Assembly: GCA_022705945.1 (NCBI GenBank)
Contig: JAKJDL010000001.1
Span: forward strand, 227,582 to 291,581
Source: Candidatus Omnitrophota bacterium
GTDB taxonomy: Bacteria > Omnitrophota > Omnitrophia > Omnitrophales > Aquincolibacteriaceae
Reading direction: 5' to 3'
Length of the DNA stretch: 64,000 bases
Positions 1,487 through 64,000 of this stretch are shown one piece after another (the stretch's first letter is position 1; each line of letters starts with the position of its first letter). The translations under genes and the position numbers were made by a program. The notes below the pieces were generated by a model. That model had not been told where the DNA came from. It did no database searches and saw only the letters and a program-made list of their open reading frames with translations.

Positions 1487-1558
1487 AATCCTAAAGGGAC
1501 CTGGTCTCGTAAAACAATAGCTTGAATCGAATCCCCGGTCCCGGGAACGTGTCCCTTT

Positions 1559-2488: not shown

Positions 2489-2569
2489 AAAATCACCTTT
2501 GTTGCCATGTGCCACAAAGCCACACGCCACATGAAACATCTTGTGGCCTTGCGGCGTGTATCGTGTAAC

Positions 2570-13898: not shown

Positions 13899-13901
13899 CC
13901 G

Positions 13902-14588: not shown

Positions 14589-14706
14589 GACAGGCGGTAT
14601 TATTTCAGATTATGCAAGGTTGGTCAATCAAGCGGATGGCATCGTCGCATCCGTTTTTACTCCCGCCGCCATCCGTCCAGCACTATCCGGCTTTTCTGGT
14701 TTTCAT

Positions 14707-48597: not shown

Positions 48598-49545
48598 TTA
48601 GTTTTTTTGAACATGCCGGATGAAACCGTTTCTTTGCGGCTTTTGGCAAGTGTCATTTTTCTTAAAAAAAATGACGGCAGTCTTCGGCCTAAAAAAAAGG
48701 ATATATGTCCAGGTGACAATCTCGTAAAAAAGCACGGGGATCAAACAGAGGAGCATCTCTGAAAGCGATTCATTTTTAATAATCGAAAGATACCGGTTCT
48801 TGATCAATTCCTTGTGCGCCGTATCATCAATATAGTGTCGGGCCATTTTTTTCCCCCGCCCTTTCGGATTTCGAATAGTTCCGCCCCGCACATGGTAGGC
48901 CAAAGCCAGAGGGGTATAGTAGGCCTTCCAACCTGCCCGTTGCGCACGCCACGCGAGGTCGAGATCTTCATAAAACATCCGGAATCGGGGATCGAAATAA
49001 TTCCGCCCTTCCTTGACGGCCTCCAGCATTTCTCTTCGATAAAAGGCCGCCGCTCCGCTCACACCGAAAACAAAACCGGACTGATTGAACTGTCCCTTGT
49101 CAATTTTTCCATATCCCCTTTCACGGGCGGTTCTCCATAATGTTAAAAAAAGACCCGTCGAATCAAGGGTTTTCCGGTCCGGCCGCATGATCTTTCCGCT
49201 CACCATTCCTATTTTTTCATTCTGCGCAAAACCCTCCAAAGCCTCTTTGATGAAATCCTTGTCCAGAATCGTGTCGTCGTTCAAGCACAGTATGAAATCC
49301 CCCGAACTTGCGGCTATCCCGAGATTAAGAGTGCTTCCAAAGTAAAAGTCCGCGGGCACATTGTGACAAACAACGGAGGGATAAACCTCCCGGGCCTTAG
49401 AAGCCGTTGCTTTATCCGGTGAGCTATCAAGTAGAATCACTTCACCGGGAGGCCTTGTCTGGGAGCGAAGGGATTTGAGACAATCGACATAATAATCTTC
49501 TCGGCCGCACGTGGGAATAAGAACACTGATAAGCCGGCTCGTCAT
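48598..49545 (-). CDS. Membrane-anchored family 2 glycosyltransferase (GtrB/CsbB-like polyprenyl-phosphate sugar synthase type).
   Basis: ISVLIPTCG...LLDSSPD...CLNDDT GT-A motifs plus C-terminal TM segment(s) LLCLIPVLFYEIVTWTYILFF. Its start ATG overlaps the stop of the upstream YfhO-like gene in ATGA. Confidence 0.75.
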   Translation of the reverse strand: MTSRLISVLIPTCGREDYYVDCLKSLRSQTRPPGEVILLDSSPDKATASKAREVYPSVVCHNVPADFYFGSTLNLGIAASSGDFILCLNDDTILDKDFIKEALEGFAQNEKIGMVSGKIMRPDRKTLDSTGLFLTLWRTARERGYGKIDKGQFNQSGFVFGVSGAAAFYRREMLEAVKEGRNYFDPRFRMFYEDLDLAWRAQRAGWKAYYTPLALAYHVRGGTIRNPKGRGKKMARHYIDDTAHKELIKNRYLSIIKNESLSEMLLCLIPVLFYEIVTWTYILFFRPKTAVIFFKKNDTCQKPQRNGFIRHVQKN

Positions 49546-51377
49546 AAGAGGGCCATAGCCGCGGTAGAGTTTTTTTTCCGGACAACGAAAAACCTGGCTC
49601 CCACCGCAAGCAGTGTCAGAACCGTGATGATACTGCCGAGCAAAAATCCCTTTAACCGGTACTTGAAGACAATTCGCCGAGAGCCTTTTTCGACGGCCGC
49701 ACTCAACAACCCTCTCGTATTCAGAACCTGAAAACCCTCGGCCTGCCAATTGCTGTGGAAGTTCTGGTTAAGGACAAGAATATCGGGCTCCAGGACCTCC
49801 GCATCAACAATAATCTTATTAGGGCTAAAAAAAACAGGACGGGCTTTATTGCCGTGATTCTTGAAAAAAACCTCCCCCTTGTAGGCCGGATTGGGGAATA
49901 GGGTATCGTTTGAATCCACAAAGTATCGCGGCAGCGCATATTCGCCGACCGCAATGTTCGCTTTCCAATCGATCGTTCCGATACCCCGCAAGAGATTAAA
50001 ATAGTAATTGCTGTTGAATGTCCTGGCATCGTAGCGCGGCAAATCCAATCCGCGAACATGGTAGAACTGCTTTTCCTTCAAGAGCGCCGGCCCGGAATGA
50101 GTAAACACTTCGGCGTTGGTGGGGATGTTAAAAAAGAAAAGCTGAAAGAGAGATATCAAACCGATCACGGCGACTCCGCAGCGAAGAAATCCGGCCTTTG
50201 TTTTTTTAAAAACCAAGTCAACAAATCCGCCGGCCAGGATCGCCAGAAAGAAAACGATAAAAAAATCATAGTATTTCAAGGGTTTGTGCATCGAGTGGAA
50301 CAGCGGTAAATGCCAAAGCATTTTAAAAAGATCGATGGGGGCGTTGTTTCCCATGGCAAGAAAAACCGCGATTGTTAATAAAAAAACAAACCCGAAGGAT
50401 TTCCTGACGTTCCCTCCCACAAAACCAAGGGCCATCACTATGGGGATAATTCCGACAAAAACTCTCGAATCTCCCATCGGCGCCGAAGGCCATGGCCGTT
50501 TATACAATAAAGAATCGAGAAGCGTCCTGAAGGTGTAGGCCATTTCAGACGCAACACCATAGTCATCGATCCCCCGGCTATCGTAGAGAAGCAGGTGTAT
50601 CATCGGAATAATTTTTACCATGGAAATAAGAATCGCCAGAAGAACACCGGCCGCAAGAGCCTTGGCGCCTTTCAACATGAATTCAGAGGGTTTTTCCTGC
50701 TCTCGAAACGGATCAAAGACCACCGTCAGGAATAAAAAAAGGAGCAAGGCAAGAAAAGCGACATTTCCGTCAAAAATCACGAGGCTCAAAAGGATTGAAA
50801 AAAGGTATAGAGGCTTTTCGCCTCCGTTTTTTTTGAAGCGGGTTATCAGGAAAAGAAGCGCCGGGAAAAGAAAATAGTGCATTTCGATAAAATTCCCGTC
50901 TTTGGCGGTCCATGGCATCCAGCTTGAAAATGCCAATATTAAGGCCGCGTAAGCCGCGGCGGCAGGATGATACCGGAGATTTTCTCGCGCAAGAAAAAAA
51001 ACACCCAATGTCCCCAAAAGATAAAAAAATAGTATGACGATCTTCGGCCCGATGATTTCATCGAATATAAGCGTCGGGAGAATGACGGGGCTGACCAGCG
51101 GAAATTCCGGATAGCCCGCAATAGGATACCCCCCGCAAACATACGGCGACCAAAGGGGTATTTGCCGAAAACACTGGAAGCTGTCTTTGATAAAGTGATG
51201 GTGCAAGTAAACCGTCAGCCAATCGTCATCCATGCTGAGTTGCCGGATATTGACGAATAAAGGAGATAAAAAAATAAAGCTCGCTACTAAAACGATCATC
51301 AACGCGACCTTATGTGTCGAAGGTTCCTTCTTGGGCGTCATGTATTTTTGTGTTCCCGTCACAAAAGCCGTTTCCAT
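49542..51377 (-). CDS. YfhO-like polytopic membrane protein (GT-C-fold glycosyltransferase candidate), paralog 1.
   Basis: Multi-TM protein with IPLWSPYVCGGYPIAGYPEFPL, a motif shared with two paralogs. Large C-terminal soluble domain and final TM. Confidence 0.55.
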   Translation of the reverse strand: METAFVTGTQKYMTPKKEPSTHKVALMIVLVASFIFLSPLFVNIRQLSMDDDWLTVYLHHHFIKDSFQCFRQIPLWSPYVCGGYPIAGYPEFPLVSPVILPTLIFDEIIGPKIVILFFYLLGTLGVFFLARENLRYHPAAAAYAALILAFSSWMPWTAKDGNFIEMHYFLFPALLFLITRFKKNGGEKPLYLFSILLSLVIFDGNVAFLALLLFLFLTVVFDPFREQEKPSEFMLKGAKALAAGVLLAILISMVKIIPMIHLLLYDSRGIDDYGVASEMAYTFRTLLDSLLYKRPWPSAPMGDSRVFVGIIPIVMALGFVGGNVRKSFGFVFLLTIAVFLAMGNNAPIDLFKMLWHLPLFHSMHKPLKYYDFFIVFFLAILAGGFVDLVFKKTKAGFLRCGVAVIGLISLFQLFFFNIPTNAEVFTHSGPALLKEKQFYHVRGLDLPRYDARTFNSNYYFNLLRGIGTIDWKANIAVGEYALPRYFVDSNDTLFPNPAYKGEVFFKNHGNKARPVFFSPNKIIVDAEVLEPDILVLNQNFHSNWQAEGFQVLNTRGLLSAAVEKGSRRIVFKYRLKGFLLGSIITVLTLLAVGARFFVVRKKNSTAAMALL

Positions 51378-52363
51378 TTTTTAAACAACTCATAGGCGGA
51401 ACGAAAGTTCCAGGAACCCAGGAGGTTAAAATCAACGCAGGCGCTTGACCAACACCCGTCACAAGACGGCTGTCTGAGCATTTGAAGGGCTTTTTCGAAA
51501 GAATGCTTCCTAAGATCAATCCCGTCCGAGCGTTTTAAAATTAAAATCGGTGTCCAGCCACAGGCAAGAAGTAACCCGTCGGGCTCGATCCGGCAGCTCA
51601 ACGAACCGGCAAAACAATTTATCCGGTTTTTTTGAGGCCATAGCTTTAAATGCTCCAGAGTGGCCAAAGAGGTGGCAATAACCTCACCGCCTTCACGTTT
51701 ATGGGCAATCAAGTAATCTATAGCCTTTTGATACGCCTTGTCCGGCGTAGCGATGGGGTTAGGACCTTTTCCCCCGAGCAACAAAAGAGACGCGGGCTGA
51801 AATGAAACCTGGATACGGTAACCTTTGGCAATCCGTATTACCTCCGGTATAAAGGCAGCGTTAAGGCTTGATATAACCGTATTAAGCTCGACCGCAATCC
51901 CGGCCTGTCGCGCAGTTTTAATGGCGGTAACCACTTTCTGGAAATTCCCTTTACCGCGGATTGAGTCATGGATTTCTTCCGGACCATCCAAACTGATTTT
52001 TAATAAAAAGATTTTTTTTATTTTTGATATTGCGTCGGGAACCCGTTTTCCGTTTGTGTTGAGAACCACGCGCAAACCAAGGGCTGCCGCCCGGTCAAGG
52101 ATTAACCCGATATCTTCTCTTAATAGAGGCTCCCCGCCGGTAAAAACAACTCCCCAAACCCTTGCGCGATGCAACTGTTCAAGGATCTCAAGCGCCTCAC
52201 GAGTCGAAAGTTCCTCCAGAACCTCATGGTTCAAACGGCAATAAAGGCACTGTTCGTCACACCGATAAGTCAGGGCCCAACTTACAGCGAGAGGACTTTT
52301 AAGCTTAAACACCCTCGCTTTTAAAAGACCGTAACAGATCTTTCCCAAACTACGAATCTTCAT
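51359..52363 (-). CDS. Radical SAM/SPASM-domain protein.
   Basis: LAVSWALTYRCDEQCLYC, FTGGEPLLRED and C-terminal Cys cluster C..C...C...CDGCWSSAC. Paralog of the 60185 gene. Confidence 0.8.
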   Translation of the reverse strand: MKIRSLGKICYGLLKARVFKLKSPLAVSWALTYRCDEQCLYCRLNHEVLEELSTREALEILEQLHRARVWGVVFTGGEPLLREDIGLILDRAAALGLRVVLNTNGKRVPDAISKIKKIFLLKISLDGPEEIHDSIRGKGNFQKVVTAIKTARQAGIAVELNTVISSLNAAFIPEVIRIAKGYRIQVSFQPASLLLLGGKGPNPIATPDKAYQKAIDYLIAHKREGGEVIATSLATLEHLKLWPQKNRINCFAGSLSCRIEPDGLLLACGWTPILILKRSDGIDLRKHSFEKALQMLRQPSCDGCWSSACVDFNLLGSWNFRSAYELFKKWKRLL

Positions 52364-52364
52364 T

Positions 52365-53126
52365 TCAAATTTCTTTCTCCAGAGCCGCAGGAAACCTGAT
52401 GGATTTTTTTTCCGCCAATAACACCAAAATCTCTCCGACATCAAAAGGATAATTTAAAAAAGACAACATATAAAGTATTGCTGAAACCCACTTTTGAAAA
52501 ACACCGTATTTTTTCAGAAATTTTTTTGAAACGTTCGCAAAGCCGAGGATGTTGCCCATTGTCAGATACAGTGTATGCACCGGGAATCCCCAGTACCTTG
52601 AAAACAAAAGTTTCATGTCATTCTCCCTAAGGGGACCCTCGAAATCTTCCTTTCTAAAGTTCCTTAAATGCCCTCGCGCCTCAAGAAACTTATGCATCTT
52701 TCCGCTGGGCACAGTAATAAGAACATAGCGGCGGGACATGGCACAAAGATTATCGAAAGCCTGTCGCCAGTTTTTGGCGGATTCTAAAACATCTCCACAA
52801 ATCACCATGTCAAACCTGGCCCCTCCCGAATAGCTCCCGCTGGAAATATCAAGGGTTTCAAAATGGACACCGGGAAACATTTTTTTATTCCTCTCTATAA
52901 GCAGAGGTGATAGATCACAAGCACTTACAATCTTTCCTTCTTCCAGGAGAGGCTGAATCATGTAGCCATATCCACAGCCCACATCAATACAAGATCGAAA
53001 ATTCATCTTTCGGATGATTGACATCAGAATGCGTCTCCGATGCCGAGCGGAAGGTCCGTACCGCTCCGCATCTTCATGCGAAAAGAACTTGTCTGTGCAA
53101 TGATTTTTCATTCTTCCAACCTTCAT
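52365..53126 (-). CDS. Class I SAM-dependent methyltransferase (Methyltransf_11/12 type).
   Basis: CIDVGCGYGY motif I and DMVICGDVLE. Confidence 0.8.
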   Translation of the reverse strand: MKVGRMKNHCTDKFFSHEDAERYGPSARHRRRILMSIIRKMNFRSCIDVGCGYGYMIQPLLEEGKIVSACDLSPLLIERNKKMFPGVHFETLDISSGSYSGGARFDMVICGDVLESAKNWRQAFDNLCAMSRRYVLITVPSGKMHKFLEARGHLRNFRKEDFEGPLRENDMKLLFSRYWGFPVHTLYLTMGNILGFANVSKKFLKKYGVFQKWVSAILYMLSFLNYPFDVGEILVLLAEKKSIRFPAALEKEI

Positions 53127-53331
53127 TCGTTACGAGTTTCCGGATGTAAGATTTTCGCGATGAAAAAAAATATTTTTATCATCAAGATCTTCGTAAAAAA
53201 GCAGCAACAAGTTATGCCGGTTTGCGTTTACTACGCCCGGGCAAGAGACACCGCTCTCCTCACGAGGCCTTTTGTTTTTCATATTTTCACAACTCATTAT
53301 CACCAAAACAATCCGTATCCCGCCGTTTCAT

Positions 53332-54567
53332 TCAGGACGGGGTGCTCAAGGATTCCATCATCTTATTCGCCGTCGCCGCAATATAGCGGATTTCCTTTTC
53401 GTCGAGATCGCTATAAAAAGGAAGTAACAGGTTACCTGCTTCCGCCATATCCGTTACCGGATAATCGTTCGCCGACACCCCGAGCGCTTTGGGACAATGA
53501 TCCATGATCTCTCCACAAATCCCAACATCCACCCCAGCTTTGATCAAGGCTTGGGCAAGCGGCCCCAACGGACATTTTTTTTTGGATCGGACTACAAAAT
53601 AGCAGTTCGCCGATATATCGCCCGGTGCTACCTCCTGAAATAAAAAATTTCCGCTCAAAAGATCCCGGTAAAGCCTTGCCCTGGCCTCTCGGATCTCCAG
53701 ATCTTTTCCGATGCCTTCCAGTTGTTTCCGTCCGATCATGGATTGCAGGGGCGAAAGGCTTTTGTTCCAGGCTCTTGTTTTATTCTTTGTCTTTCGGTAA
53801 AACTCGATGAAAAACTCCACGTGTTTACGCGAACCCAGAAGGAGTTTTGAAAAAAAAGGAAGAACGGCAATCCTTTCCAGATATGCAGTTGTTGCGGAGG
53901 CAAGCGTTTCAATCTTGCCGGGAATGTATGAAAAAATCTTTGAACGGCAAAAACCGATGATTTTTTTGTCGGGGGAGTAAATCATTCCCCCGCCGAAAGC
54001 GTTGATCTGTTTCCCCATGCTAAAGCTGAAAAAAGCGGCCTTCCCGAAGTTGCCGACCTTTCTCCCCCGGCTCTCGGCTCCAAGCGCGTGAGCGCAATCT
54101 TCAACCACCATGATGCCTTTGGCATCCGCCAGGCGGCAGATTTCTTGAATCCGGCACGGAACGCCAAAAATATGCGTGGCAACAATAACTCTGGTTTTCG
54201 GAGTGATCTTTTGAGCAACCGCTTCGGGGCTCATATTGAAAGTCTTGGGATCTATATCCGCAAAAACCGGTTTGAGCTTCATTTCTTCGATCATTTTTAC
54301 GAGATCGAATAGCGTATAGGCAGGGAAAAGAATTTCATCGCCCTCCCGGAGGTCTTGTGACTCCAGTATGAGCTTTAGCGCCTGCCTCCCGCTGCAAGTG
54401 GCTACCGCCTCTCCCCCGCCCAAATATTCCGAGAAAACCCTCTCAAAAAGGCTGATTTGTGATCCGGCTGGAAATCCGGGGGAAAAAATGGCCTTCAAAA
54501 TATCCAGATCCTCGTTGGGATAAAATTTGATCTTTCTACGGGGGATAACCTTGATTTGTCTCAACAT
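53332..54567 (-). CDS. DegT/DnrJ/EryC1/StrS family PLP-dependent sugar aminotransferase.
   Basis: HIFGVPC...VVEDCAHALGA...FSFSMGKQINAFGGG, with the PLP lysine context. Confidence 0.9.
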   Translation of the reverse strand: MLRQIKVIPRRKIKFYPNEDLDILKAIFSPGFPAGSQISLFERVFSEYLGGGEAVATCSGRQALKLILESQDLREGDEILFPAYTLFDLVKMIEEMKLKPVFADIDPKTFNMSPEAVAQKITPKTRVIVATHIFGVPCRIQEICRLADAKGIMVVEDCAHALGAESRGRKVGNFGKAAFFSFSMGKQINAFGGGMIYSPDKKIIGFCRSKIFSYIPGKIETLASATTAYLERIAVLPFFSKLLLGSRKHVEFFIEFYRKTKNKTRAWNKSLSPLQSMIGRKQLEGIGKDLEIREARARLYRDLLSGNFLFQEVAPGDISANCYFVVRSKKKCPLGPLAQALIKAGVDVGICGEIMDHCPKALGVSANDYPVTDMAEAGNLLLPFYSDLDEKEIRYIAATANKMMESLSTPS

Positions 54568-56467
54568 GGCTCGTCCTTGCGCTTGAACTCCGGATCAACG
54601 GAATATTCTTTATGTTCAATAAAATCAAAAGGGAAATCAGGCTGATCCCGGCTCCGGCGTAAAATGTCGCGGGTTGGTATTTTAAAACAATATGATGTTC
54701 ACCCTCTGTAACACCCGCGACACACAACAACCCCTGTCGGGGAATCAATCTCCCCGCATTGGCACGCCACCACGGAGAGAAATTCTGATTAATCAAAACA
54801 TCCCCCCGTTTTTTTAAATGAACTTTGATTTCAATTTTTCGGGGAGTCATGGAAACGACTTTTAGGATTCCGGCGGTCTGCTCTCCCAAAAAGGCTTCCC
54901 CCCGATAAAGAGGGTTGGCCTCGGGAAGTTGATAGACGACATCAAGATCATGCGTCCGATCCCGCCATGCCTTCCGGGAGATTCGATAAAACAACTTAGG
55001 AACGGTGTTTTCTCCAAACGTAACCGGTATCACCGCATTGATCGTCCCGATCCCACGCTTTACATTATAATATTGTTCGAGTGAATAAAAATTTGTTCTC
55101 TGGTCCGGTTGCTTCCCTGCCTCTTGCCCGAGAAAAACCGTTTGAAAAAAATCCGATTCCGTCATAAGGTGAGGGGGAGGAATATCGAAAATACCTTCCC
55201 ACATCCAACGGGCTCCCGCCAAAGGCGTTATCGAAAAAAACAGCAGCAACCCTGTCACGACACATCTCACCCCGCGCCGTTTGCCGCGAATCACCGAAAA
55301 AAAACTTCCCGCAATGATAGCCCCGAGGAAAAGGATCAGAGGAACAAAGTATTTATCAAGTTTATAGATCTCTCGAAAAGGAAAGAGTGCTTTCCATAAA
55401 AACTTATAAATATCCACGCGCCCATTGCACCCCATGGAAATCAGCAGTATGAAGAGTAAAACAAAAAGATGCCGCCGGTTTTTTCCAAAAAGCAGCATGC
55501 TGCCGAGAAGAAATAATATAAAAGGGATAGGGCCTACAAACATAAGCGAGTGGCCATAATCATGATAAGGCGCCGAGCTTCGCCCGGGAGGGATGGTCGC
55601 ATTCATAAAAAGCTTTTGGAGATCAACCGCTTCGGCAATTTTGCAGAAATCGCTATAGTCCTTTTGTATCCTGTCGTGAGGTTTGCTTAGAGAGGATTGC
55701 AACAGCTCAACCGCAGGGAGAACGCGTGGTGCGGCCAGCAGTAAAGAGAAAAGGGTCACCGCAAAAAACCTCTGAAAATATTTTGTCCGATCCGAAAATT
55801 TCGGCCGGGCCCTAAAAAGTTCCGTGAAACTATAAAGAAACAGGAGCAGAAGGGTGACGAAATAAACGAATCCCGCTTGAAACAGCAGCGCGGCAAGAAC
55901 CACCGCAGAACCAGCCAAAAATCGTCTGTCGTCCCTGGTTTTTATAAAAAAACCCAAAACGATCGGAAGCAGACAAAAATAGAATTTCGTAAAATTACCG
56001 CTTCGGGCCTCCGCCGCCCACCAGGAACAAAGAGCGAAGACAAGAGAGGAAAAAAGGGCACCACCCAAATTGTAATTTAACACATTCCGTGTCAAATAAA
56101 ACATCCCGAAGAAACCGCTCAGCCAGAGAAAAAGGATCGCCAATTTCACTCCGGCAATCTCGCCTGCGACCAGAACTACCGGGAAAAAAAGCGATAGAGA
56201 AAAATCATAAGGGTTCGCTACGAGGGGATACCCGCCGCAAAAAAGATTGCTCCAGAGGGGAAACTGATGAAACCGCAGCATGCTGTCGCGTGCCGCGGCC
56301 GCATAAGCAAAAGCCTGGACCCAGTCGGGATTTTTGCTTAAATGGGTGATATTAAACAAAAAAGGCGCTATAAAAAAAAGCAGCCCCGCGAGAGAAAAAC
56401 ATAATCCCCAAAAATCTTTTGTTCCCCCAAATACCGTTTTGTTTTTATGAAGGGTTTTTTCTGTCAT
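54536..56467 (-). CDS. YfhO-like polytopic membrane protein, paralog 2.
   Basis: FPLWSNLFCGGYPLVANPYDFSL. Multi-TM. Confidence 0.55.
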   Translation of the reverse strand: MTEKTLHKNKTVFGGTKDFWGLCFSLAGLLFFIAPFLFNITHLSKNPDWVQAFAYAAAARDSMLRFHQFPLWSNLFCGGYPLVANPYDFSLSLFFPVVLVAGEIAGVKLAILFLWLSGFFGMFYLTRNVLNYNLGGALFSSLVFALCSWWAAEARSGNFTKFYFCLLPIVLGFFIKTRDDRRFLAGSAVVLAALLFQAGFVYFVTLLLLFLYSFTELFRARPKFSDRTKYFQRFFAVTLFSLLLAAPRVLPAVELLQSSLSKPHDRIQKDYSDFCKIAEAVDLQKLFMNATIPPGRSSAPYHDYGHSLMFVGPIPFILFLLGSMLLFGKNRRHLFVLLFILLISMGCNGRVDIYKFLWKALFPFREIYKLDKYFVPLILFLGAIIAGSFFSVIRGKRRGVRCVVTGLLLFFSITPLAGARWMWEGIFDIPPPHLMTESDFFQTVFLGQEAGKQPDQRTNFYSLEQYYNVKRGIGTINAVIPVTFGENTVPKLFYRISRKAWRDRTHDLDVVYQLPEANPLYRGEAFLGEQTAGILKVVSMTPRKIEIKVHLKKRGDVLINQNFSPWWRANAGRLIPRQGLLCVAGVTEGEHHIVLKYQPATFYAGAGISLISLLILLNIKNIPLIRSSSARTSHVETNQGYPP

Positions 56468-57872
56468 CGATTAGATCGCATCCATGGTGTCGTTTCGGCC
56501 CCAGCACGAACAAAAAAGTCCGCCCGAGATACAGTAAAACAGAAAAGAAAATTCGAACCGCTTGAGGGAGCCTCCTCCCCAGAAAAAGGAGGTTTTGAAA
56601 GAAAATAACAGGGTGCAGATAAAACCTTAAATGCAAAAGCAGGGCCCATCCTCTGGTTTTCTCCCATTTCAAAAGCATCTCTTCTTTTCCGTAAAACTCC
56701 TTAAAAAAAGAAGATCCTTCCAACATCAGGAACTTATAGAAAAAAACATAATGAGAACGCGCTTTAATTGCCAAAGCCAGGTTTTGTTCATCTGTGTCCT
56801 GCTCCTCACCCGGAAGTCCGAGAATAAATTGAAGTTTGACCATGATGTTGGCTTGCTTGGCCTTTCGGACAATCTCGTTCAGCAAAACCGGACTAACCGG
56901 CGTCCTTTGACTCATCCGAAGAGCCCGGGCACTCACCGATTGAACCCCCAGAACAAGTCCCACACAGCCGGCATTCCCCATCAGCTCCAATATCCCGGGA
57001 TCTTCCAGGCTCGTAAAATGCATCATACAAGCCCAGCGGATATCATGCTTACCGGCAATCATTTTTTCACAAAAACTCCGGAGCCACTCCCGGTTTAATC
57101 CAAAAACATCGTCGTGAAAACTGATGAATTTGATCTGGTAAAGCTTCTTGCATTCCTCTATCTCTCGCATAACGTTTGCAACGCTTCGCGATCGGTATCG
57201 GTTGCCCCAAAAATTACAGGAAGCGCAGTAAGCGCAGGAGAATGGACAGCCGCGCGAGGCAACCATGTTGATAAAAGGCCTTGCGCTATCAAACCACTGA
57301 AAATTGAACGATTTTTCCACCTGTTCTTTATCCCGCTTGGGAAACGGCAACGTATCTAGGTCCTGAATCAGGTCTTGAGGAGGAGCATGTTTAATCCCAC
57401 CATGCTCAAAATAAGAGACTCCTTTCAAATCGCCTTTACTCCTTTTCCCCTCAAAATAATCCGCGAGATCAGCGATCGTTCGCTCCCCTTCTCCATGGCA
57501 TACAAAATCACAGCCGCCCGAAAGATATTCATCGGGACAAAAACATCCCGGGCCGCCGACAATAATGGGGAGATCTTTTAATTCTTTCTTAATCTCTTGT
57601 ATAGAGCGAACGACCTTTCCCCCGACTGAATAAGCTGAATAAAAACCCACAAACAACCATGGGGTTTTTTTTAAACGCAAGACCAGTTCCTCCATGGAAA
57701 ATGAAACATAGCTCTGGTCCAGCAATTCAGTCTTGATGCCTTTTTCTTCCAAAACAGCACAAAGGTATTGAAGTCCTAATTTAGGCGTTGTTTTCAGTTC
57801 CTTGGTTGGCCGGATGCCGAAAAAATCATCCGATTCGGGGGCCAGATAAACTAAGAGGGCTCTTTTGTTCAT
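56445..57872 (-). CDS. Cobalamin-binding radical SAM protein (class B) with a hydrophobic C-terminal tail.
   Basis: B12-binding-like N-terminus LLVYLAP...GLQYLCAVL. Radical SAM motif ASRGCPFSCAYC. Confidence 0.85.
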   Translation of the reverse strand: MNKRALLVYLAPESDDFFGIRPTKELKTTPKLGLQYLCAVLEEKGIKTELLDQSYVSFSMEELVLRLKKTPWLFVGFYSAYSVGGKVVRSIQEIKKELKDLPIIVGGPGCFCPDEYLSGGCDFVCHGEGERTIADLADYFEGKRSKGDLKGVSYFEHGGIKHAPPQDLIQDLDTLPFPKRDKEQVEKSFNFQWFDSARPFINMVASRGCPFSCAYCASCNFWGNRYRSRSVANVMREIEECKKLYQIKFISFHDDVFGLNREWLRSFCEKMIAGKHDIRWACMMHFTSLEDPGILELMGNAGCVGLVLGVQSVSARALRMSQRTPVSPVLLNEIVRKAKQANIMVKLQFILGLPGEEQDTDEQNLALAIKARSHYVFFYKFLMLEGSSFFKEFYGKEEMLLKWEKTRGWALLLHLRFYLHPVIFFQNLLFLGRRLPQAVRIFFSVLLYLGRTFLFVLGPKRHHGCDLIDDRKNPS

Positions 57873-57875
57873 TGG

Positions 57876-60008
57876 TTATTTAAAACCGGTTTCAACATAA
57901 CGTTTTTTCTTTCTCAAAACCATAAAGAGAGTGGCGGTCAAAACTAAAAAAACGGAGGAGATCAAAACCCCGGCCGCAAACGAGGACGGAGTATACCAAA
58001 GTCGCACGAAGTTGCGGCCCGGTCGCAAAAAAACAGCCCGGAAAGCCCCGTTTGCACGATAAATGTTTTCTTCCTTGCCGTTCACTCGAACCTTCCAGCC
58101 CGGATAAAAGAGATCCGAAATAACCAGAAAAGAGGGCTGTTTGACAGCAACTTCAAGATCCGCTTTCTGTGAAGTTTCCCTGATAACCTTTACCCGGTTA
58201 TCACTCAGGGATTTATCCGTTTCTTTATCGGGAAGCTCCGTAGGCATCGGGGGTTTTTCTATCGTGACCGTCGTAGTGAAATCAATATCGCCGTCCGCGA
58301 TCCTCTCGACAGCCTCCCGATAATTTTCTACCGCTATCGCATAAGGCGCCACCCGGAATCTGTCAAGAGCGCCGGGCACCTCATAGACCAGGATATCCCC
58401 GAAAGCGGCTGTCTGCTTTAACAAAGGATTATCGATAACCCTGTCTGACAGAATATATTTGACGCTCGCCAATCTTAAAAAGGTCAAATCGCCTTCAGGG
58501 TCCATTCGATCTTTAACCGCATCATACTCCGGCAAAGGAAATTCAATAAGCCCCGTGGCACTTTTGATTCTAAATCGAATATTATTGTCAGCCTCGAGAA
58601 GATCCACCATATGCCTGTCTTGATCGCGAACGGAGAATATTCTTTGATCCGCCAATTGTTGAGATAAAAAACCGGTTACCGGGGGATAGAAATCGGCTGA
58701 GCGTTTATCGGGAGATCTGCTCCGGAAAAAATCGAAAAAATGGTTCGAAAAAAACCAAAGCTCGGACACCGTCAAAACAATCACCGCCACACCAAAAAGT
58801 TTGAGTTTGGGTTTCATTCCCCCTTTCTTGGCGGAAGCTTTTATCCAGATATCCAGCCCCAGACCGGCCAACACAGCTAAAATAAAGGTGGCAATATAAA
58901 GGGTTCGATAACTTCGTCCTATGTATTTTATGAAAAAAAGCGGCTCAAGAGCATACGTAAAAAATGGATTGTTTTCGCCCAAAGCTAAAAAAAACGCTAT
59001 GGCGCACAGCGATAGAAAAGTGCAGATAAGTCCGTTTCTGATTTTTAAAACCGCCCACAGGCATAAAAACAACGGCGCGGTCCCCAGGTACATGCAAGTC
59101 TGCATATCAAAACCATCCGGGAGCCTACCGTTGGTCCAGGGGTAAAAAAAAGTCAAAAGGGCGTGAGGAGACATGGAATTGTCAAAGATTAATTCGCTGT
59201 CGGTCCCGAGCGACCGGCTTGAAAGCCGGAACAACTCAAGTGTGGGGAGATTCTGAACGGCTGAAAGGCCGAGGCCGATCAGAAGCGCCGTGCCCAAAAA
59301 AGACAGATGCCGCAAAAAATCTTTTTTGGGTCTTTGAAACAGCCCCCTTATAAACAAATAAAGCCCCGCGAAAAAAATGGAATAAACGGCAAAGGAGTAA
59401 TACCCCGAGAGAAGCTGCAATCCAAAAACGCACCCGAGCATTAACGCGCTGATTGGGTTTTTGTCTTTAAGATATTTTTCGATTAAAAAAAAGGCCGCGG
59501 GTAGCCAAGGCATGGGACGCACACGAGCAAGGCTGCTTATGTGAAAAACCACAAAAGAGCTTAAAATCAATACCGCTGCCGAGAAAAAAGCGCTGATTTT
59601 GCGGGCATCCAAGCTTTTGGTATAAAGATAAGTGAACACCCCGATCAGAAAAATGTGCAGGAATAATGATGCGTTGTGCGCAACAGCAGCGGGAAAACAC
59701 AAGAAAAGCAAGATGTCGATGGGATAAAAACTTCCGGGTTGCGCATTGGCCAACAAGGGATACCCGCAATAAATATACGGATTCCAAAGCGGGAAGACAC
59801 CGCTTTTCAAAAATTCGGCACTTAACCCAACCCGGCCATAAGGAGCATCGATTCCGTCATGCAGCAAGCTGATCCCGGCGATCAACCCGCCTTGGCTCAG
59901 GATGGTTTGAAAAAAAAACGGCAGGATAATGAAGCCGAGCATACTCAAAAAGACCAGATCTCTTTTATCAATTTTCACAAGTTTCGCCCGCCGGTTTTTG
60001 TAATACAA
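57876..60008 (-). CDS. YfhO-like polytopic membrane protein, paralog 3.
   Basis: FPLWNPYIYCGYPLLANAQPGSFYP. Multi-TM with a C-terminal TM. Confidence 0.55.
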   Translation of the reverse strand: MYYKNRRAKLVKIDKRDLVFLSMLGFIILPFFFQTILSQGGLIAGISLLHDGIDAPYGRVGLSAEFLKSGVFPLWNPYIYCGYPLLANAQPGSFYPIDILLFLCFPAAVAHNASLFLHIFLIGVFTYLYTKSLDARKISAFFSAAVLILSSFVVFHISSLARVRPMPWLPAAFFLIEKYLKDKNPISALMLGCVFGLQLLSGYYSFAVYSIFFAGLYLFIRGLFQRPKKDFLRHLSFLGTALLIGLGLSAVQNLPTLELFRLSSRSLGTDSELIFDNSMSPHALLTFFYPWTNGRLPDGFDMQTCMYLGTAPLFLCLWAVLKIRNGLICTFLSLCAIAFFLALGENNPFFTYALEPLFFIKYIGRSYRTLYIATFILAVLAGLGLDIWIKASAKKGGMKPKLKLFGVAVIVLTVSELWFFSNHFFDFFRSRSPDKRSADFYPPVTGFLSQQLADQRIFSVRDQDRHMVDLLEADNNIRFRIKSATGLIEFPLPEYDAVKDRMDPEGDLTFLRLASVKYILSDRVIDNPLLKQTAAFGDILVYEVPGALDRFRVAPYAIAVENYREAVERIADGDIDFTTTVTIEKPPMPTELPDKETDKSLSDNRVKVIRETSQKADLEVAVKQPSFLVISDLFYPGWKVRVNGKEENIYRANGAFRAVFLRPGRNFVRLWYTPSSFAAGVLISSVFLVLTATLFMVLRKKKRYVETGFK

Positions 60009-60184
60009 AACACTGATTGATAAAGGCCCATCCTGATAATTTTATTTTCCCGATAGCTCAGTCTGTCTTCCGGGCCAATTGTGCGGCAACTTCGGCCCGT
60101 TGTTGATACCGGAGCTTAAACGGGGCTTTTTCACTCCTGTCCGAGTGATATTGAACCCCCAATACACCATCCGTCATGCCGCTT

Positions 60185-61174
60185 TTACCTGAAAAACCTT
60201 TTAAGCCGGTTATACACCGCATTAAGGTTCCCCTTGAAAAAATAATTAACTTCGACCCTCTCGGCGCACCAGCAGAAATCACAGGTCATGGGTTTCGTTT
60301 TAAGAAACAAATCCCTGAGATCTTCCTGAAAACAATTTCCGGCAATGTTCGGCCGGGGACAAACTCCGCAAAGCATGACATTGCCGCGAGGATCAATGCG
60401 TCGGAATATAAACTCGCCCGCGCAAGAAAGGGGGGCGGGATCCGGCCATAATTTAAGGTGCCGCAGTCCCGCAACAGAATTACCTATATTCGCACCTTTT
60501 TTTTTCAGTGCGATCAAATAATCGAGCATTTCCCGATAGTCTGTGATAAAAGGATCCACAAGGGTCTTCCCCTGTCCTCTGAGACGGTTTTGGAAAACGG
60601 GCTGAAAGGTAACGTCGCTTTTGTAGTTCGATGCAAATTTCAACATAAAATCAATATACCGGGATTGAACGTTGCCGGCCGACAAAACCGTCAGGAAACC
60701 TGTTTTAACGGAGTGGCGGGCCGCCGCCTCCGCGGCATCGACCACTCTTTTGAAAGACCCTGCCCCGCGCAACGGATCATTCACCTCCTCGGGGCCATCC
60801 AAACTTAATGTTAACTTCCCAACCGGCCGGATCTCTTTGATTCGTAAAGGAACCAGGGCTCCGTTTGAATTCAAGCGGGTCAGAATACCCTCTTGCGAAC
60901 AACAATCCAGTATTCTGCCAATGTCTTCTCTCAGAAGGGGCTCCCCTCCCGTAAAGGATATTACCTTGACCCCCAGACGAGCCATCGTCCTGATCAGGAA
61001 GAGGACCTTCTCTTCCCGGATCTCTTCCGATACAGAAACCTGATGCTCGTTACAATAAACACAACGGTAATTACACCTCTCGGTAATAATCCAGCTGACC
61101 GCCAAAGGAATTCTTCTCCTCAAAACCTTGGCTAAAATCACCCCCCCGAGCAGACCTAAAGTGTTTTTTGTCAT
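60185..61174 (-). CDS. Radical SAM/SPASM-domain protein.
   Basis: LAVSWIITERCNYRCVYC, FTGGEPLLRED and C-terminal CAGE...CGVCPRPN...CDFCWC. Confidence 0.8.
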   Translation of the reverse strand: MTKNTLGLLGGVILAKVLRRRIPLAVSWIITERCNYRCVYCNEHQVSVSEEIREEKVLFLIRTMARLGVKVISFTGGEPLLREDIGRILDCCSQEGILTRLNSNGALVPLRIKEIRPVGKLTLSLDGPEEVNDPLRGAGSFKRVVDAAEAAARHSVKTGFLTVLSAGNVQSRYIDFMLKFASNYKSDVTFQPVFQNRLRGQGKTLVDPFITDYREMLDYLIALKKKGANIGNSVAGLRHLKLWPDPAPLSCAGEFIFRRIDPRGNVMLCGVCPRPNIAGNCFQEDLRDLFLKTKPMTCDFCWCAERVEVNYFFKGNLNAVYNRLKRFFR

Positions 61175-62697
61175 GGCGTTCTCTTGATTTTTATAAACGA
61201 AAACGCTCTTGAGAGCAAATATCCGGTTCTTTCGAGGTAGTTTTTAAAATAAACCCAAAATCGCGGATCACGATTTTTAATTCCTATAAAAATTTTCAGG
61301 CAATCCACCAAAAAATCGGGCAAAAAACGGGCTCTTAGGTATCTTTTTTCTTCAGAAAGCCATCTCACGGTATTTTCTGATAATAGAGGCAGTATCGAAT
61401 AAAGCTTTTTTAAAGCCTCTCCCGCCTTCTTTACGTCCTCATCCCCAAGATCCGCCTGACGAAAAAAACCATCTGTTCTTCCTTGCTCTATTTCCCGGAC
61501 ATCATCTTCGGAAAGTGTTTTTTCACGGAGAGCGATATCTACGATCTCAAGCTTGGGGAAATAACAAAGATTAAAGCATTTGATCCTGTTTAAACGCTTA
61601 TAGCGTTTAAAGCGGGAAGCGGCGCGAGCCGCGTCATCGGTATTTTCTCCGGGAAGATCAAACATCAGATCGGCGTCAAACCATATCCCGGCTTCATCGC
61701 ACAAGCGGAAAACCTTCCATATCTGGTCATCGGTAACAGGCCGATTAAGAAACCTTTCCCGAACGCGGCGATTCATCGACTGAATTCCGAAGTTCACCGC
61801 GTAGCAATTACTCTCCCGAAGCTCAATCGCTATTTCCCGATCAAAAGATTCCAGGTGTCCCATACACTTGAACGGCACTCCGATACGGGTCCGGTATTCT
61901 TTCAAAAAAGCCTTCATCCACTCCTTGTTATAATGAAAAATATTATCAAAAAAAATAATCCTCTCATATCGATACCGATGTTTCATGAGCTCAAGCTCCG
62001 AAATCATCGATCCGACACTTCTTTGACGGAAATATTTTGGCCCGTAAAACCTGTTCATAAAGCTCTCACAGCAGTAAGTGCAGCTGTAAGGACATCCCCG
62101 CGAGGTCATGACAAGAAAATCGTCGCGATAATTTATATGTCGCTCAAAAAGAGCTTTGTCGGGATAAGGGAGTAAATCCAGATTGGTTATTAACCTGTCG
62201 GAAATCTTATTCTTGATGACTTTTCCGTCTTTTTTATAAAAAACATTATCGATATCGCAGTTTTTTGCGGGTTTTTGAAGGAAGCGAACCAATTCAACAA
62301 AGGTTTTCTCGGATTCGCCGGCAACAACATAGTCAACGGCATCCGCCCCGGCAACAATCTCCGGTACCAGGGTGGCGTGGCTTCCTCCCACCACAATCTT
62401 GGTTTCTATATGCTCCTTTATCGATCGCGCAAAGCGCTTGATCCAATCAAAATTGGCCGTGTAAGCCGAAAAGGCTACAACATCGGGTTTTTCCCTGCAT
62501 ATTTGAGACAACATCTCTTTTTCACGGCTAAATGCTCTTTCCAGCCACGGGTTGTAAAGAGTGTTATCTTGCTTACTGAAATATCCGGGGTCATAGCTCA
62601 ACAAAACCTCGACATCCAGACCGCTTTGTTTTAGAACAGCCGACAAATACTCAATCCCCAGATGCTCCCTGCCGAGATGGCAAAAAAGAACCTTCAC
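61171..62697 (-). CDS. Cobalamin-binding radical SAM protein (class B).
   Basis: B12-binding-like N-terminus and TSRGCPYSCTYC. There are 4-nt overlaps with both neighbours. Confidence 0.85.
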   Translation of the reverse strand: MKVLFCHLGREHLGIEYLSAVLKQSGLDVEVLLSYDPGYFSKQDNTLYNPWLERAFSREKEMLSQICREKPDVVAFSAYTANFDWIKRFARSIKEHIETKIVVGGSHATLVPEIVAGADAVDYVVAGESEKTFVELVRFLQKPAKNCDIDNVFYKKDGKVIKNKISDRLITNLDLLPYPDKALFERHINYRDDFLVMTSRGCPYSCTYCCESFMNRFYGPKYFRQRSVGSMISELELMKHRYRYERIIFFDNIFHYNKEWMKAFLKEYRTRIGVPFKCMGHLESFDREIAIELRESNCYAVNFGIQSMNRRVRERFLNRPVTDDQIWKVFRLCDEAGIWFDADLMFDLPGENTDDAARAASRFKRYKRLNRIKCFNLCYFPKLEIVDIALREKTLSEDDVREIEQGRTDGFFRQADLGDEDVKKAGEALKKLYSILPLLSENTVRWLSEEKRYLRARFLPDFLVDCLKIFIGIKNRDPRFWVYFKNYLERTGYLLSRAFSFIKIKRTP

Positions 62698-63686
62698 CTT
62701 AATCCCCCCCCTTCAGGGTTCCGGCTCATAAGAGCTTTTAAAAAAAAAGGTAATGGGAGCAGTCCGGCTATTGCCGGGAGAAGATAACAGACAAGGGAAT
62801 ATAAAAGACCGCAACTCAGCAATGCTTCATTTGAAGCGTTGCCGGAAAAAAAATACAGAACCGCCAGTTCACGAGTCCCGAGACCAAACAAGGTGAAGGG
62901 CAAGTTTGTAATAAACATGATGGCGGGAACCGCGAATAATGCTTTTGCGAACGGGATATCGATCGCCAGCGTTCGCGCCAAAGAAAAGAATATGATTACT
63001 TCTATCAGTTCGATTAATATCGCGAGCCCCAGGATTTTCAAAATCTTTCTCTTCTCGCTCCGAAAAAACCGGGCGACCGCCGTCAACCGCTCTAAAAACC
63101 CCCGAACTCGGTTATTGGTCCCATGTTGTTTTAAAAATCTTACGGCCAACACTAACGTTCCGGCCATCACGGTTAAAACAGCCGCGCCTTTTAAAGCGGC
63201 GGCATTTCCGTTAAACATGAGTCCGGTCAAAATAATCATTAAAAGCACAACGGCTGCCAGGAACATACTGATCATTATCGTTTGAAGCGATTGGGTAACG
63301 GGGACAGACCGTTTCCATTTCAGATATCCGCACACGAAAAACTCGCCTGCCTTCAGGGGAAACACTCCCTTGAGAGGAGCGGCTGCCATTCTTATAAACA
63401 TCGCTTCACCAAAGGAAATGGACGGGCCGACCGCCTTGAGTATCCACCTAAACTCAAGCGGCACAAGGATGGCGGCCGAGAAGAGAGAGAGAACTGCTAT
63501 GCTTCCGAGTTTCGTCCGGCTCACATCCTCAATCAGGCAAAGCACTTGGGTTGCATCATTTTTTTTAAAGAAAAAAATAAAAAAAAGCCCCGTTAAAAAA
63601 ACCGTTAAAAAAAACCGCAGGTTGTTTTGAATCCGCTTTTTATTGTTGGGCAAGGCTGCTTTCACCGCCGCGACAGACGAGCACAT
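62694..63686 (-). CDS. Flippase-like / lysylphosphatidylglycerol-synthase-TM-domain (UPF0104) membrane protein.
   Basis: ~8 TM helices with the pattern typical of LPG_synthase_TM-type proteins, which often accompany GT2 enzymes. Confidence 0.6.
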   Translation of the reverse strand: MCSSVAAVKAALPNNKKRIQNNLRFFLTVFLTGLFFIFFFKKNDATQVLCLIEDVSRTKLGSIAVLSLFSAAILVPLEFRWILKAVGPSISFGEAMFIRMAAAPLKGVFPLKAGEFFVCGYLKWKRSVPVTQSLQTIMISMFLAAVVLLMIILTGLMFNGNAAALKGAAVLTVMAGTLVLAVRFLKQHGTNNRVRGFLERLTAVARFFRSEKRKILKILGLAILIELIEVIIFFSLARTLAIDIPFAKALFAVPAIMFITNLPFTLFGLGTRELAVLYFFSGNASNEALLSCGLLYSLVCYLLPAIAGLLPLPFFLKALMSRNPEGGGLR

Positions 63687-64000
63687 TGAACACCTTTAAA
63701 AACTGTTTCATGGTCAACTTTAAAAGACCGTGCTTTAAAATAATCCTTAAGAAAAGAAAATGCCCTCGGATCCGTCCACCGGCTTGTTATCACCCAAACG
63801 TCTTCGGGTTTCCACGGCAGACGACGGACTTCCTGCATGGAAACTTCAAAGTCTTTTACAAAAAACAACTCACTGTGCTTCTGGTTTTCCCTGAGCCCGA
63901 CAAAAAACATTCTGGGCTTTTCGATTGAAACCGTGTTCTGATCTTCCGGACCGTCAACAATCCTTAAATTTTTCAAAAAATCCGGGCCTCTAAAATAATA
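63662..64000 (-). CDS. Hypothetical protein, partial. The ORF stays open to the window edge, and the apparent start at 63976 is TTG.
   Basis: An open frame continues upstream with no stop before position 64000. No family recognised. Confidence 0.3.
   Translation of the reverse strand, partial: YYFRGPDFLKNLRIVDGPEDQNTVSIEKPRMFFVGLRENQKHSELFFVKDFEVSMQEVRRLPWKPEDVWVITSRWTDPRAFSFLKDYFKARSFKVDHETVFKGVQCARLSRR

Follow-up and report, generated by a model that had tools for sequence, protein, structure and literature searches.

Glycosylation systems in which a GT-A glycosyltransferase (GT), a flippase and a GT-C glycosyltransferase cooperate are well described (PMC5836110, PMC8035078). Teichoic acids of Bacillus subtilis, Staphylococcus aureus and Listeria are decorated by CsbB/GtcA/YfhO, in which a lipid-linked sugar is made inside, flipped and transferred outside by a YfhO-superfamily GT-C with a large extracytoplasmic C-terminal domain (PMC5836110, PMC8035078). 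GtrABC of Shigella and Salmonella and the Klebsiella O2 system cited in PMC11127046 decorate O-polysaccharides in the periplasm, employing one specific GT-C per modification, and in Klebsiella O2 the decorated polymer is made by a Wzm/Wzt pathway. In the pentofuranose system of Citrobacter youngae O1/O2, a GT136-type GT-C with a C-terminal glycan-binding domain is embedded in an ABC-transporter O-antigen locus and works with a UbiA-type synthase (PPPRS) and a MATE flippase, setting a precedent that donor synthase and flippase need not be GtrB and GtrA (PMC11127046). Extracytoplasmic decoration by GT-Cs drives antigenic diversity and has been well studied in pathogens, but not in candidate phyla. 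Here, we analyzed a stretch of 64,000 nucleotides (nt; subsequently designated the window) from Candidatus Omnitrophota bacterium (contig JAKJDL010000001.1), which encodes three YfhO-like proteins. The original prediction saw in these proteins, an adjoining GT2 and a flippase-like protein a three-component module for periplasmic glycosylation. The data presented below identify the YfhO-like proteins as GT-Cs and the GT2 as a chain-building enzyme of a conserved core locus. On balance, the segment from 49.5 to 64 kb is probably an accessory cassette that modifies a surface glycan outside the cytoplasmic membrane, placed within a conserved Omnitrophota locus for an O-antigen-like polymer exported by an ABC transporter.

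With CsbB/GtcA/YfhO the locus shares YfhO-superfamily GT-Cs carrying a large extracytoplasmic C-terminal domain and, presumably, the logic of making a lipid-linked sugar inside, flipping it and transferring it outside. It differs in that two of the three paralogs stay below the Pfam cut-off for YfhO, in that the proteins comprise ~600-700 amino acids (aa) as compared to the 835 positions of the Pfam model, and in that the window lacks a CsbB-type GT2 and a GtrA/GtcA flippase, encoding a PF03706 protein instead. Moreover, an O-antigen-like polymer of a diderm would take the place of teichoic acid as acceptor, and the GT-Cs are paired with radical SAM enzymes here. Periplasmic O-polysaccharide decoration by dedicated GT-Cs would be common to this locus, GtrABC and Klebsiella O2 (cited in PMC11127046), including in the last case the Wzm/Wzt pathway, but the window encodes no homolog of GtrB or GtrA, the GT-Cs belong to another family, and three to four GT-Cs are combined with tailoring enzymes in one operon. 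As in C. youngae O1/O2, GT-Cs with a C-terminal domain are embedded in an ABC-transporter O-antigen locus; neither a UbiA-like PPPRS nor a MATE protein is encoded in the window, however, the GT-C family differs, and radical SAM partners are found only here. The assumption that such a combination with a Wzm/Wzt pathway is unusual was not borne out, as GT-C decoration of ABC-transporter-dependent polymers is documented for the group A streptococcal and lactococcal rhamnans (PMC8035078) as well as for C. youngae O1/O2 and Klebsiella O2 (PMC11127046).

The three YfhO-like proteins, subsequently designated Y1 (49542..51377; 611 aa), Y2 (54536..56467; 643 aa) and Y3 (57876..60008; 710 aa from a TTG start, 700 aa as called in GenBank), the GT2 at 48598..49545 and the flippase-like protein at 62694..63686 are all encoded on the minus strand in one tightly packed operon running from high to low coordinates. 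GenBank lists Y1, Y2 and the flippase-like protein as hypothetical. Judged by sequence, Y1, Y2 and Y3 are true paralogs with similarities far beyond chance: Y1 is 29% identical to Y2 over 606 aa (E = 4e-56) and 25% identical to Y3 over 442 aa (E = 4e-14), while Y2 and Y3 match each other with E = 3e-5. As predicted, they share a PLW..GGYP motif (IPLWSPYVCGGYP, FPLWSNLFCGGYP and FPLWNPYIYCGYP). In an alignment of 53 subfamily members, residues D52, P74, G82, G83, P85 and P97 are conserved to at least 90%, making the motif a signature of the subfamily. Proteins of the window were also compared with Pfam and NCBIfam profiles, bit scores being judged against the curated cut-off of each family. Membership in Pfam YfhO (PF09586; cut-off 28.5 bits) held for Y3 (54.2 bits, 1.1e-14), whereas Y2 (27.1 bits, 1.8e-6) and Y1 (22.1 bits, 5.9e-5) remained below; likewise, only 13 of the 53 aligned proteins match PF09586 at E≤1e-3. 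In NCBIfam, no model matched Y1 or Y2, and the matches of Y3 are limited to the C-termini of the streptococcal YfhO-family proteins PgfM2 (1.1e-8) and PgfM1 (1.4e-3). A word-indexed homolog search returned 4 proteins from Y1 alone and 16 from a 7-sequence profile, as opposed to 39,442 cluster representatives at E≤1e-3, including 2,162 at E≤1e-30, in an exhaustive profile search. The more distant matches of the Y1-subfamily profile all carry PF09586.

The structure of Y1 was predicted with AlphaFold2 (AF2) on the subfamily alignment, yielding a model with pLDDT 92.4 and pTM 0.91. The first loop is long, and a beta-sandwich domain (residues ~440-573) separates ~12 transmembrane (TM) helices from a last TM helix. 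When the model was compared with the PDB by Foldseek, the top 23 matches were all GT-C enzymes (STT3/PglB, AftD, AftA, Pmt4, DPY19, GPI mannosyltransferase I), with E values from 1e-5 (STT3/PglB leading), probabilities of 0.99-1.00 and TM-scores of 0.29-0.47. Y2 and Y3 were assigned by homology to Y1, the modelled protein. Taken together, Y1, Y2 and Y3 are GT-C enzymes of a divergent YfhO branch. The other identities that had been considered for them, an O-antigen ligase or polymerase or an ArnT-like GT83 enzyme, do not apply to these proteins; a PMT_2-type GT-C and a Wzy_C protein are present in the locus additionally. GT-C enzymes carry a catalytic acidic residue in the first extracytoplasmic loop. 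In the Y1 model, TM1 spans residues 19-37, and D52 as well as P74, G82, G83 and P85 reside in the loop following it, which is predicted to be extracytoplasmic from the Lys-rich N-terminus and the positive-inside rule. In C. youngae ORF12, a carbohydrate-binding module binds the acceptor glycan (PMC11127046), and the beta-sandwich domains of the YfhO-like proteins may have an analogous role. One member of the subfamily (P0004, 725 aa, from locus L095; L-numbers denote the compared loci) has a Laminin_G_3 domain, a concanavalin-like lectin, inserted in the periplasmic C-terminal domain, which fits a role of this domain as glycan-binding module. Another, metagenomic protein (P0274, 1189 aa) unites a GT2 (PF00535/PF13641) and YfhO (PF09586) in one polypeptide and thus represents a natural GT-A/GT-C fusion.

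As predicted, radical SAM genes flank each of the paralogs, one being located directly upstream of each. Y3 is preceded by a radical SAM gene of 329 aa (60185..61174, minus strand; Pfam Radical_SAM 7.1e-22), Y2 by a B12-binding radical SAM gene of 475 aa (56445..57872, minus strand), which overlaps Y2 by 23 nt, and Y1 by a radical SAM gene of up to 361 aa with uncertain start codon (51359..52444, minus strand; Radical_SAM 4.6e-24), which overlaps Y1 by 19 nt. These pairs recur elsewhere. In L006/L089, which belong to a different organism whose Y1 ortholog is 42% identical, the order is B12-radical SAM, Y3-like, B12-radical SAM, radical SAM, B12-radical SAM, Y2-like, radical SAM, Y1-like. Orthologs of the 475-aa B12-radical SAM protein precede the Y2-like gene in L006/L089 (5.5e-122) and L096 (1e-106), a radical SAM gene is again directly upstream of the Y1-like gene in L006 and L096, and an ortholog of the B12-radical SAM protein encoded at 61171..62697 is found upstream of the Y3-like gene in L006. 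L096 thus keeps both the B12-radical SAM/Y2-like and the radical SAM/Y1-like pair. In L099, the order is DegT, YfhO-like, B12-radical SAM, YfhO-like, radical SAM, radical SAM, PF03706, and in L073, L020 and L068 radical SAM genes lie directly beside a YfhO-like gene. In L097, B12-radical SAM genes alternate with genes for ~600-650-aa proteins lacking Pfam matches; one of these proteins (P0129) was confirmed as YfhO-like, and the other three were unmatched by the YfhO-like subfamily profile. DegT and YfhO-like genes share a locus in L006, L073, L096 and L099, being adjacent in L073 and L099. For more distant YfhO proteins (L093-L095) the pairing with radical SAM genes is weak or absent. Close orthologs of Y1 were found at only 4 loci in metagenomes and at none in reference genomes and are therefore rare, so that cassette statistics are drawn from ~9 informative loci. 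Recurrent, syntenic pairing of the YfhO-like subfamily with radical SAM and B12-radical SAM genes, DegT and PF03706 is observed in at least 8 loci, and it is this pairing that is new. The locus shows the divergent YfhO branch to be a GT-C family with thousands of metagenomic relatives, whose genes form conserved pairs with radical SAM genes in Omnitrophota.

The GT2 at 48598..49545 (minus strand; 315 aa), auto-named "PNAG synthase" in GenBank, had been regarded as the GtrB/CsbB-like enzyme providing the donor. This assignment was not supported. A profile built from 48 family sequences and compared with PDB sequences ranked chondroitin synthase first (1.5e-21), further high-ranking matches being GalT1, heparosan synthase, the glycosyltransferases 5tze and 6h1j, WrtF, PglI and SpsA. 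The polyprenol-phosphate enzymes came last (DPMS 4.3e-5, GtrB 1.8e-3, ArnC 0.31) and their matches were confined to the generic N-terminal ~100 residues. In NCBIfam, there was no match to ArnC (NF007986) or PgfS (NF047588) at E≤0.01, the best matches being PgaC, EpsD, HpsN and MftF. The AF2 model (pLDDT 88.9) is nearest to ppGalNAc-T2, GlfT2, hyaluronan synthase, K4CP, WrtF and SpsA according to Foldseek, whose top 50 matches contain no GtrB, DPMS or ArnC. Moreover, the protein aligns from end to end, including the tail, with the soluble GT2 encoded at 31209..32054 (30% identity), which has no hydrophobic segment.

Instead of the two-helix C-terminus predicted from the GtrB type, the GT2 possesses one hydrophobic segment at residues ~260-285 (peak Kyte-Doolittle (KD) value 1.91; AF2 helix 268-285). 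A C-terminal helix is therefore present as anticipated, but as a membrane anchor it is marginal: a KD value of 1.6 is passed by 33 of the 48 family members, and the conserved motif contains an Asp/Glu in mid-helix. The segment fits an interfacial or single anchor helix, not a two-helix hairpin. As GtrB-type enzymes may have one or two TM helices (PMC11127046), we gave the helix count little weight on its own. To see whether these comparisons tell the GT2 types apart, the GT2 beside the YfhO-like gene in L073 serves as positive control. It matches ArnC (3.2e-33), GtrB (1.2e-23) and DPMS (1.6e-14) in the PDB comparison, which included the ArnC structures 9hwj and 9bhc. In NCBIfam, it matches ArnC with 4.1e-39 and PgfS with 4e-27, and its C-terminus contains two hydrophobic segments.

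Genomic neighbourhood points in the same direction. We inspected the best 80 of 451 relatives of the GT2 in species-representative genomes, almost all from Omnitrophota and 46-61% identical. Within ±10 kb of these orthologs, a YfhO-like gene is found in 3/80 and a PMT_2 gene in 6/80 loci, as compared to 37/80 for GT4, 21/80 for WecA and 47/80 for Wzy_C. The orthologs instead sit after WecA or an oxidase and before Wzm, or beside Wzy_C/GT2b. In the nearest four ortholog loci (L009-L012, 57-61% identical) the order is GT2, Wzm, Wzt, B12-radical SAM, radical SAM, which is also the order downstream of the GT2 in the window, and in L009 and L010 GT4, WecA and oxidase genes precede the GT2. Five independent tests agree that the GT2 at 48598..49545 is not GtrB/CsbB-like. 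Sequence profile, predicted structure, C-terminal topology and conserved neighbourhood all place it among the chain-building GT2s of the WbbL/GlfT/EpsD type and in the conserved core locus. A GT2 adjoining a GT-C is thus not necessarily its donor synthase, a tempting mis-assignment for which L073 provides the control and the comparisons above a set of tests separating the two types of GT2.

The core locus consists of GT4, a WecA-like initiating transferase, a flavin oxidase, the GT2, Wzm, Wzt and radical SAM genes. The gap between oxidase and GT2 measures 95 nt in L003 and ~20 kb here, where it is filled by a block in the order Wzy_C, GT9, B12-radical SAM, PMT_2, PF03706, B12-radical SAM, radical SAM, Y3, B12-radical SAM, Y2, DegT, methyltransferase, radical SAM, Y1. 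Given the core order elsewhere and this gap, the GT2 and Y1 are most plausibly neighbours because an accessory block within the conserved core ends between them, not because they are partners. The cassette runs ~6 kb past the end of the window, into the upstream region contained in L001.

The competing view that the system is self-contained, with the GT2 making the donor, the PF03706 protein flipping it and the three YfhO-like GT-Cs transferring it, has to be judged against the same data. The stop codon of Y1 and the start codon of the GT2 do overlap in ATGA (49545..49542), as noted earlier in terms of translational coupling. In addition, the C-terminal hydrophobic helix of the GT2 is conserved in its family, and GtrB-type enzymes may have no more than one or two TM helices (PMC11127046). 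The overlap was rejected as a sign of specific partnership, however, as 4-nt overlaps are common in the operon, the identical one occurring at six junctions. A GT2 gene also invariably follows the Y1-like gene in other loci (L006, L096, L100), and a GT2-YfhO fusion exists in P0274. In L006 and L096 the GT2 in this position belongs to a third lineage, GT2c (46% identical to each other, ~20% to the GT2 of the window), which is EpsD/rhamnosyltransferase-like and not GtrB-like, whereas the GT2 following the YfhO-like gene in L100 is ArnC-like. Occurrence of a GT2 after a Y1-like gene is thus recurrent but non-orthologous, suggesting a functional slot that different GT2 lineages fill, and for this reason we retain a self-contained system as an unlikely alternative. 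Against it stand the weak, N-terminal-only matches of the family profile to ArnC, GtrB and DPMS as opposed to 1.5e-21 for chondroitin synthase, the missing NCBIfam and Foldseek matches described above, the full-length similarity to a soluble GT2, the 77 of 80 genomes in which no YfhO-like gene is near the GT2 ortholog, and the L073 control, which passes the tests that the GT2 of the window fails.

If the adjoining GT2 does not make the donor, other genes have to be considered. Queries of ArnC-like and DPM-like type yielded no match to the GT2 at 48598..49545 at E≤10, nor a gene of this kind in any frame of the window. No recognisable polyprenyl-phosphate sugar synthase is encoded in the 64-kb window, including the housekeeping genes in its first 21 kb, or in the 10 kb upstream, and a synthase of the UbiA type is likewise missing from the window. 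Sugar must therefore be loaded on polyprenyl phosphate by an enzyme encoded outside this region or by one of unrecognised type. For both synthases and flippases, sharing or remote encoding is frequent in systems of this kind (PMC8035078). Other compared loci do possess true ArnC/DPM-like GT2s, either directly beside GT-C genes (L073, L100, L068), within a few kb (L054) or elsewhere in the locus (L088). Two further Omnitrophota loci, L004 and L005, contain at positions 1..3166 a gene resembling UbiA-family prenyltransferases, which adjoins B12-radical SAM and PMT_2 GT-C genes, an arrangement recalling polyprenyl-phosphoribose donor synthesis for GT-C enzymes.

The proposed flippase-like character of the protein encoded at 62694..63686 (minus strand; 330 aa, polytopic) was confirmed over its full length, residues 27-308 matching positions 3-302 of 302 of PF03706 (LPG_synthase_TM, MprF-flippase-like; 3.5e-27, 96.1 bits, cut-off 33.4), while the score for NCBIfam TIGR00374 (33.9 bits) is below the cut-off of 43.2. 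PF03706 genes are also found near GT-C/GT2 genes in L099, L085 and L094, and this recurrence makes the protein a candidate flippase for lipid-linked sugars. Consequently, of the three components postulated for the module, two are represented in the window, i.e. the GT-Cs and the flippase candidate, without a recognisable donor synthase.

These observations can be combined in a model, in which decoration of an exported polymer in the periplasm is reasonable as a general idea. In the cytoplasm, the WecA-like enzyme, GT4s and GT2s including that at 48598..49545 would assemble a polymer on undecaprenyl-PP, and the completed polymer would be exported by Wzm/Wzt. Cytoplasmic DegT, methyltransferase and radical SAM enzymes might tailor sugar donors by amination, C-methylation, deoxygenation or epimerisation, with one tailoring enzyme per GT-C. 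The PF03706 protein would flip the polyprenyl-phosphate-linked donor across the membrane and each GT-C would then add a sugar from it in the periplasm. Several points weigh against the cassette being such a decoration system, namely the sub-threshold Pfam scores of Y1 and Y2 and the lack of a recognisable polyprenyl-phosphate sugar synthase in the window and the 10 kb upstream. To our knowledge, lysyl-phosphatidylglycerol, flipped by MprF, is the one substrate for which a flippase role of PF03706 has been demonstrated, polyprenyl-linked sugars not being among the proven substrates. That the cassette was inserted is deduced from comparison with other species, not from insertion scars, and the role of the radical SAM enzymes from gene neighbourhood and superfamily-level similarity. 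Finally, the Wzm/Wzt polymer is a presumed acceptor, to which protein, lipid A-core or another glycan would be alternatives.

Two rivals concern what the GT-Cs do with their substrates. In mycobacteria, arabinogalactan is made by WecA, WbbL, GlfT1/2 and Wzm/Wzt, followed by the Emb/Aft GT-Cs. The locus resembles this pathway in its WecA-like initiator, a GlfT2/WbbL-like GT2, Wzm/Wzt and several paralogous GT-Cs presumably acting outside the membrane, but the GT-C families differ, no genes of a decaprenyl-phosphoribose pathway are seen here, and the organism is an anaerobic member of the Omnitrophota. By the same scheme, the four GT-Cs of the locus could jointly polymerise a second glycan domain on an exported primer, as Emb/Aft do with arabinan on the Wzm/Wzt-exported galactan. 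The presence of several paralogous GT-Cs in one locus, AftD and AftA among the Foldseek matches of Y1, the structural resemblance of the core GT2 to GlfT2, its combination with a WecA-like enzyme and Wzm/Wzt, and the UbiA-type gene beside B12-radical SAM and PMT_2 genes in L004 and L005 speak for this. However, a UbiA-type or other donor synthase is lacking in the window, and Aft and STT3 match Y1 with similar, generic GT-C strength (TM-scores 0.40-0.47). The data fit polymerisation and single additions alike, and we consider joint polymerisation improbable.

In the Arn pathway, ArnB (a DegT-family aminotransferase), ArnC (a GT2) and ArnT (a GT-C) act together. A DegT-family gene beside a GT-C gene is likewise found in the window, and L073 has an ArnC-like GT2 in addition; the window lacks an ArnC-like GT2 and its GT-C family is another one. 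With this precedent, the YfhO-like GT-Cs could act on acceptors other than the exported polymer, either on surface proteins as PgfM1/PgfM2 of S. mutans or on lipid A/core as ArnT. The only NCBIfam matches of Y3 are indeed the C-termini of PgfM2 and PgfM1, the combination of DegT and GT-C, joined in L073 by an ArnC-like GT2, is reminiscent of ArnB/ArnC/ArnT, and the block also contains GT9 and Wzy_C/WaaL-like genes. The PgfM matches, however, cover the last ~75-90 residues only and miss the cut-offs by a wide margin, the cassette lies within a polysaccharide export operon and shares its orientation, and the periplasmic beta-sandwich fits, by analogy only, a glycan-binding module as in C. youngae ORF12 (PMC11127046). 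Such acceptors thus appear quite unlikely, and modification of a surface glycan outside the cytoplasmic membrane remains the preferred function of the cassette.

As to the chemistry of the partner enzymes, the nearest solved structure is the cytosylglucuronate decarboxylase BlsE for 51359..52444 (6.7e-11) and AprD4 (diol-dehydratase) for 56445..57872 (1.9e-13), i.e. sugar-modifying radical enzymes, a similarity at the superfamily level. The protein encoded at 60185..61174 is a paralog of that at 51359..52444 (2e-60); it has no Pfam SPASM match, its nearest NCBIfam relatives being radical SAM families of the SPASM/twitch type. Matches to HpnJ, HpnR and TIGR04072 brought up tailoring of hopanoid or ladderane lipids, which was rejected as all scores are far below the cut-offs. 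Two B12-radical SAM proteins have a C-terminal hydrophobic helix (56445..57872, residues 438-459; 35605..37242, residues 509-532), which suggests membrane anchoring. Such anchoring would be rare among enzymes of this class but in keeping with lipid-linked substrates. Our search of the available literature returned no description of the YfhO-like subfamily, of its pairing with radical SAM and B12-radical SAM genes or of PF03706 as polyprenyl-sugar flippase, and a 2026 preprint on Omnitrophota genomes mentions radical SAM domains together with glycosyltransferase domains only where both are modules within giant proteins. We tentatively propose, with considerable doubt, that the YfhO-like and radical SAM/B12-radical SAM genes form a previously undescribed decoration module, in which a dedicated radical enzyme per GT-C remodels the membrane-bound, polyprenyl-linked sugar by C-methylation, deoxygenation or epimerisation prior to flipping by PF03706. 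A functional pairing would connect radical chemistry with lipid-linked sugar donors, and the surface of these ultra-small, host-dependent bacteria might then carry unusual sugars of the C-methylated, deoxy or amino type. Were dedicated radical enzymes to act in this manner, Omnitrophota glycans would contain radical-derived sugars beyond the reach of nucleotide-sugar pathways under anoxic conditions.

The remaining genes of the cassette, like its GT-C and radical SAM genes, are co-oriented and often overlap. At the window end, 63662..63976 (minus strand) encodes the C-terminal 104 aa of a fourth GT-C, which belongs to the PMT_2 family. The full protein has 539 aa (L001 8406..10025; Pfam PMT_2 5.3e-8; local match to the piece in the window 1.2e-75), raising the number of GT-Cs in the locus to four, and its gene overlaps the PF03706 gene by 25 nt. 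The B12-radical SAM gene at 61171..62697 (minus strand; 508 aa) matches Pfam B12-binding (3.7e-19) and Radical_SAM (4.3e-16). Between Y2 and Y1, a DegT/DnrJ/EryC1 sugar aminotransferase (53332..54567, minus strand; Pfam 2.4e-64), whose gene overlaps Y2 by 32 nt, and a class I SAM-dependent methyltransferase (52365..53126, minus strand; Methyltransf_23 1.1e-10 and related models) are encoded. Downstream of the GT2 follow Wzm, the ABC-2 permease of the polysaccharide exporter (47662..48453, minus strand; ABC2_membrane 3e-13), and the 916-aa ABC ATPase Wzt (44915..47665, minus strand), in which ABC_tran (2.8e-21) covers residues 31-161 only and the C-terminal extension of ~650 aa has no Pfam match. 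Upstream of the window end, L001 contains genes for a B12-radical SAM protein, GT9, a Wzy_C/WaaL-like protein on the opposite strand (Wzy_C 2.3e-13), the flavin amine-oxidase-like protein, a WecA-type Glycos_transf_4 protein (3.7e-33) and GT4. Wzm, Wzt, a WecA-type initiator and a Wzy_C/WaaL-like gene together mark an ABC-transporter-dependent O-polysaccharide pathway.

The flavin amine-oxidase-like gene (PF01593 and NAD_binding_8; L001 2989..4317, also in L003, L009, L010 and L006) is located between the WecA-like gene and the core GT2 in 15/80 loci. Its identification as UDP-galactopyranose mutase, which would fit a GlfT2-like GT2, was not adopted, as Pfam returned Amino_oxidase and NAD_binding_8, with a faint GLF match in L006 only. 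Radical SAM domains accumulate in this region, ~11 of them being encoded in roughly 40 kb of the locus including the upstream gene in L001. A 1473-aa protein (38132..42553) contains three tandem radical SAM + SPASM units (three Radical_SAM and three SPASM stretches in Pfam) and is followed by a stand-alone radical SAM-SPASM gene (37282..38181) and the B12-radical SAM gene at 35605..37242. In the N-terminal extension of the 800-aa B12-radical SAM protein encoded at 42550..44952, residues 91-180 are homologous to residues ~731-821 in the C-terminal extension of Wzt (91 aa aligned with 26% identity, E = 3e-9 in pairwise comparison), neither extension being assigned to a Pfam family. Should Wzt use its extension for glycan recognition, the B12-radical SAM protein may bind the same lipid-linked polymer. 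In the Omnitrophota polysaccharide locus L003, a 636-aa protein uniting GT2 and Radical_SAM Pfam domains is encoded directly after the Wzm gene (13764..15674). Farther away in the window, at 23231..25010, there are two overlapping genes, one of which encodes a 327-aa product with a DPPY-type motif (LILIDPPYNL) typical of N6/N4 DNA methyltransferases, and by its sequence this gene pair looks like a restriction-modification pair.

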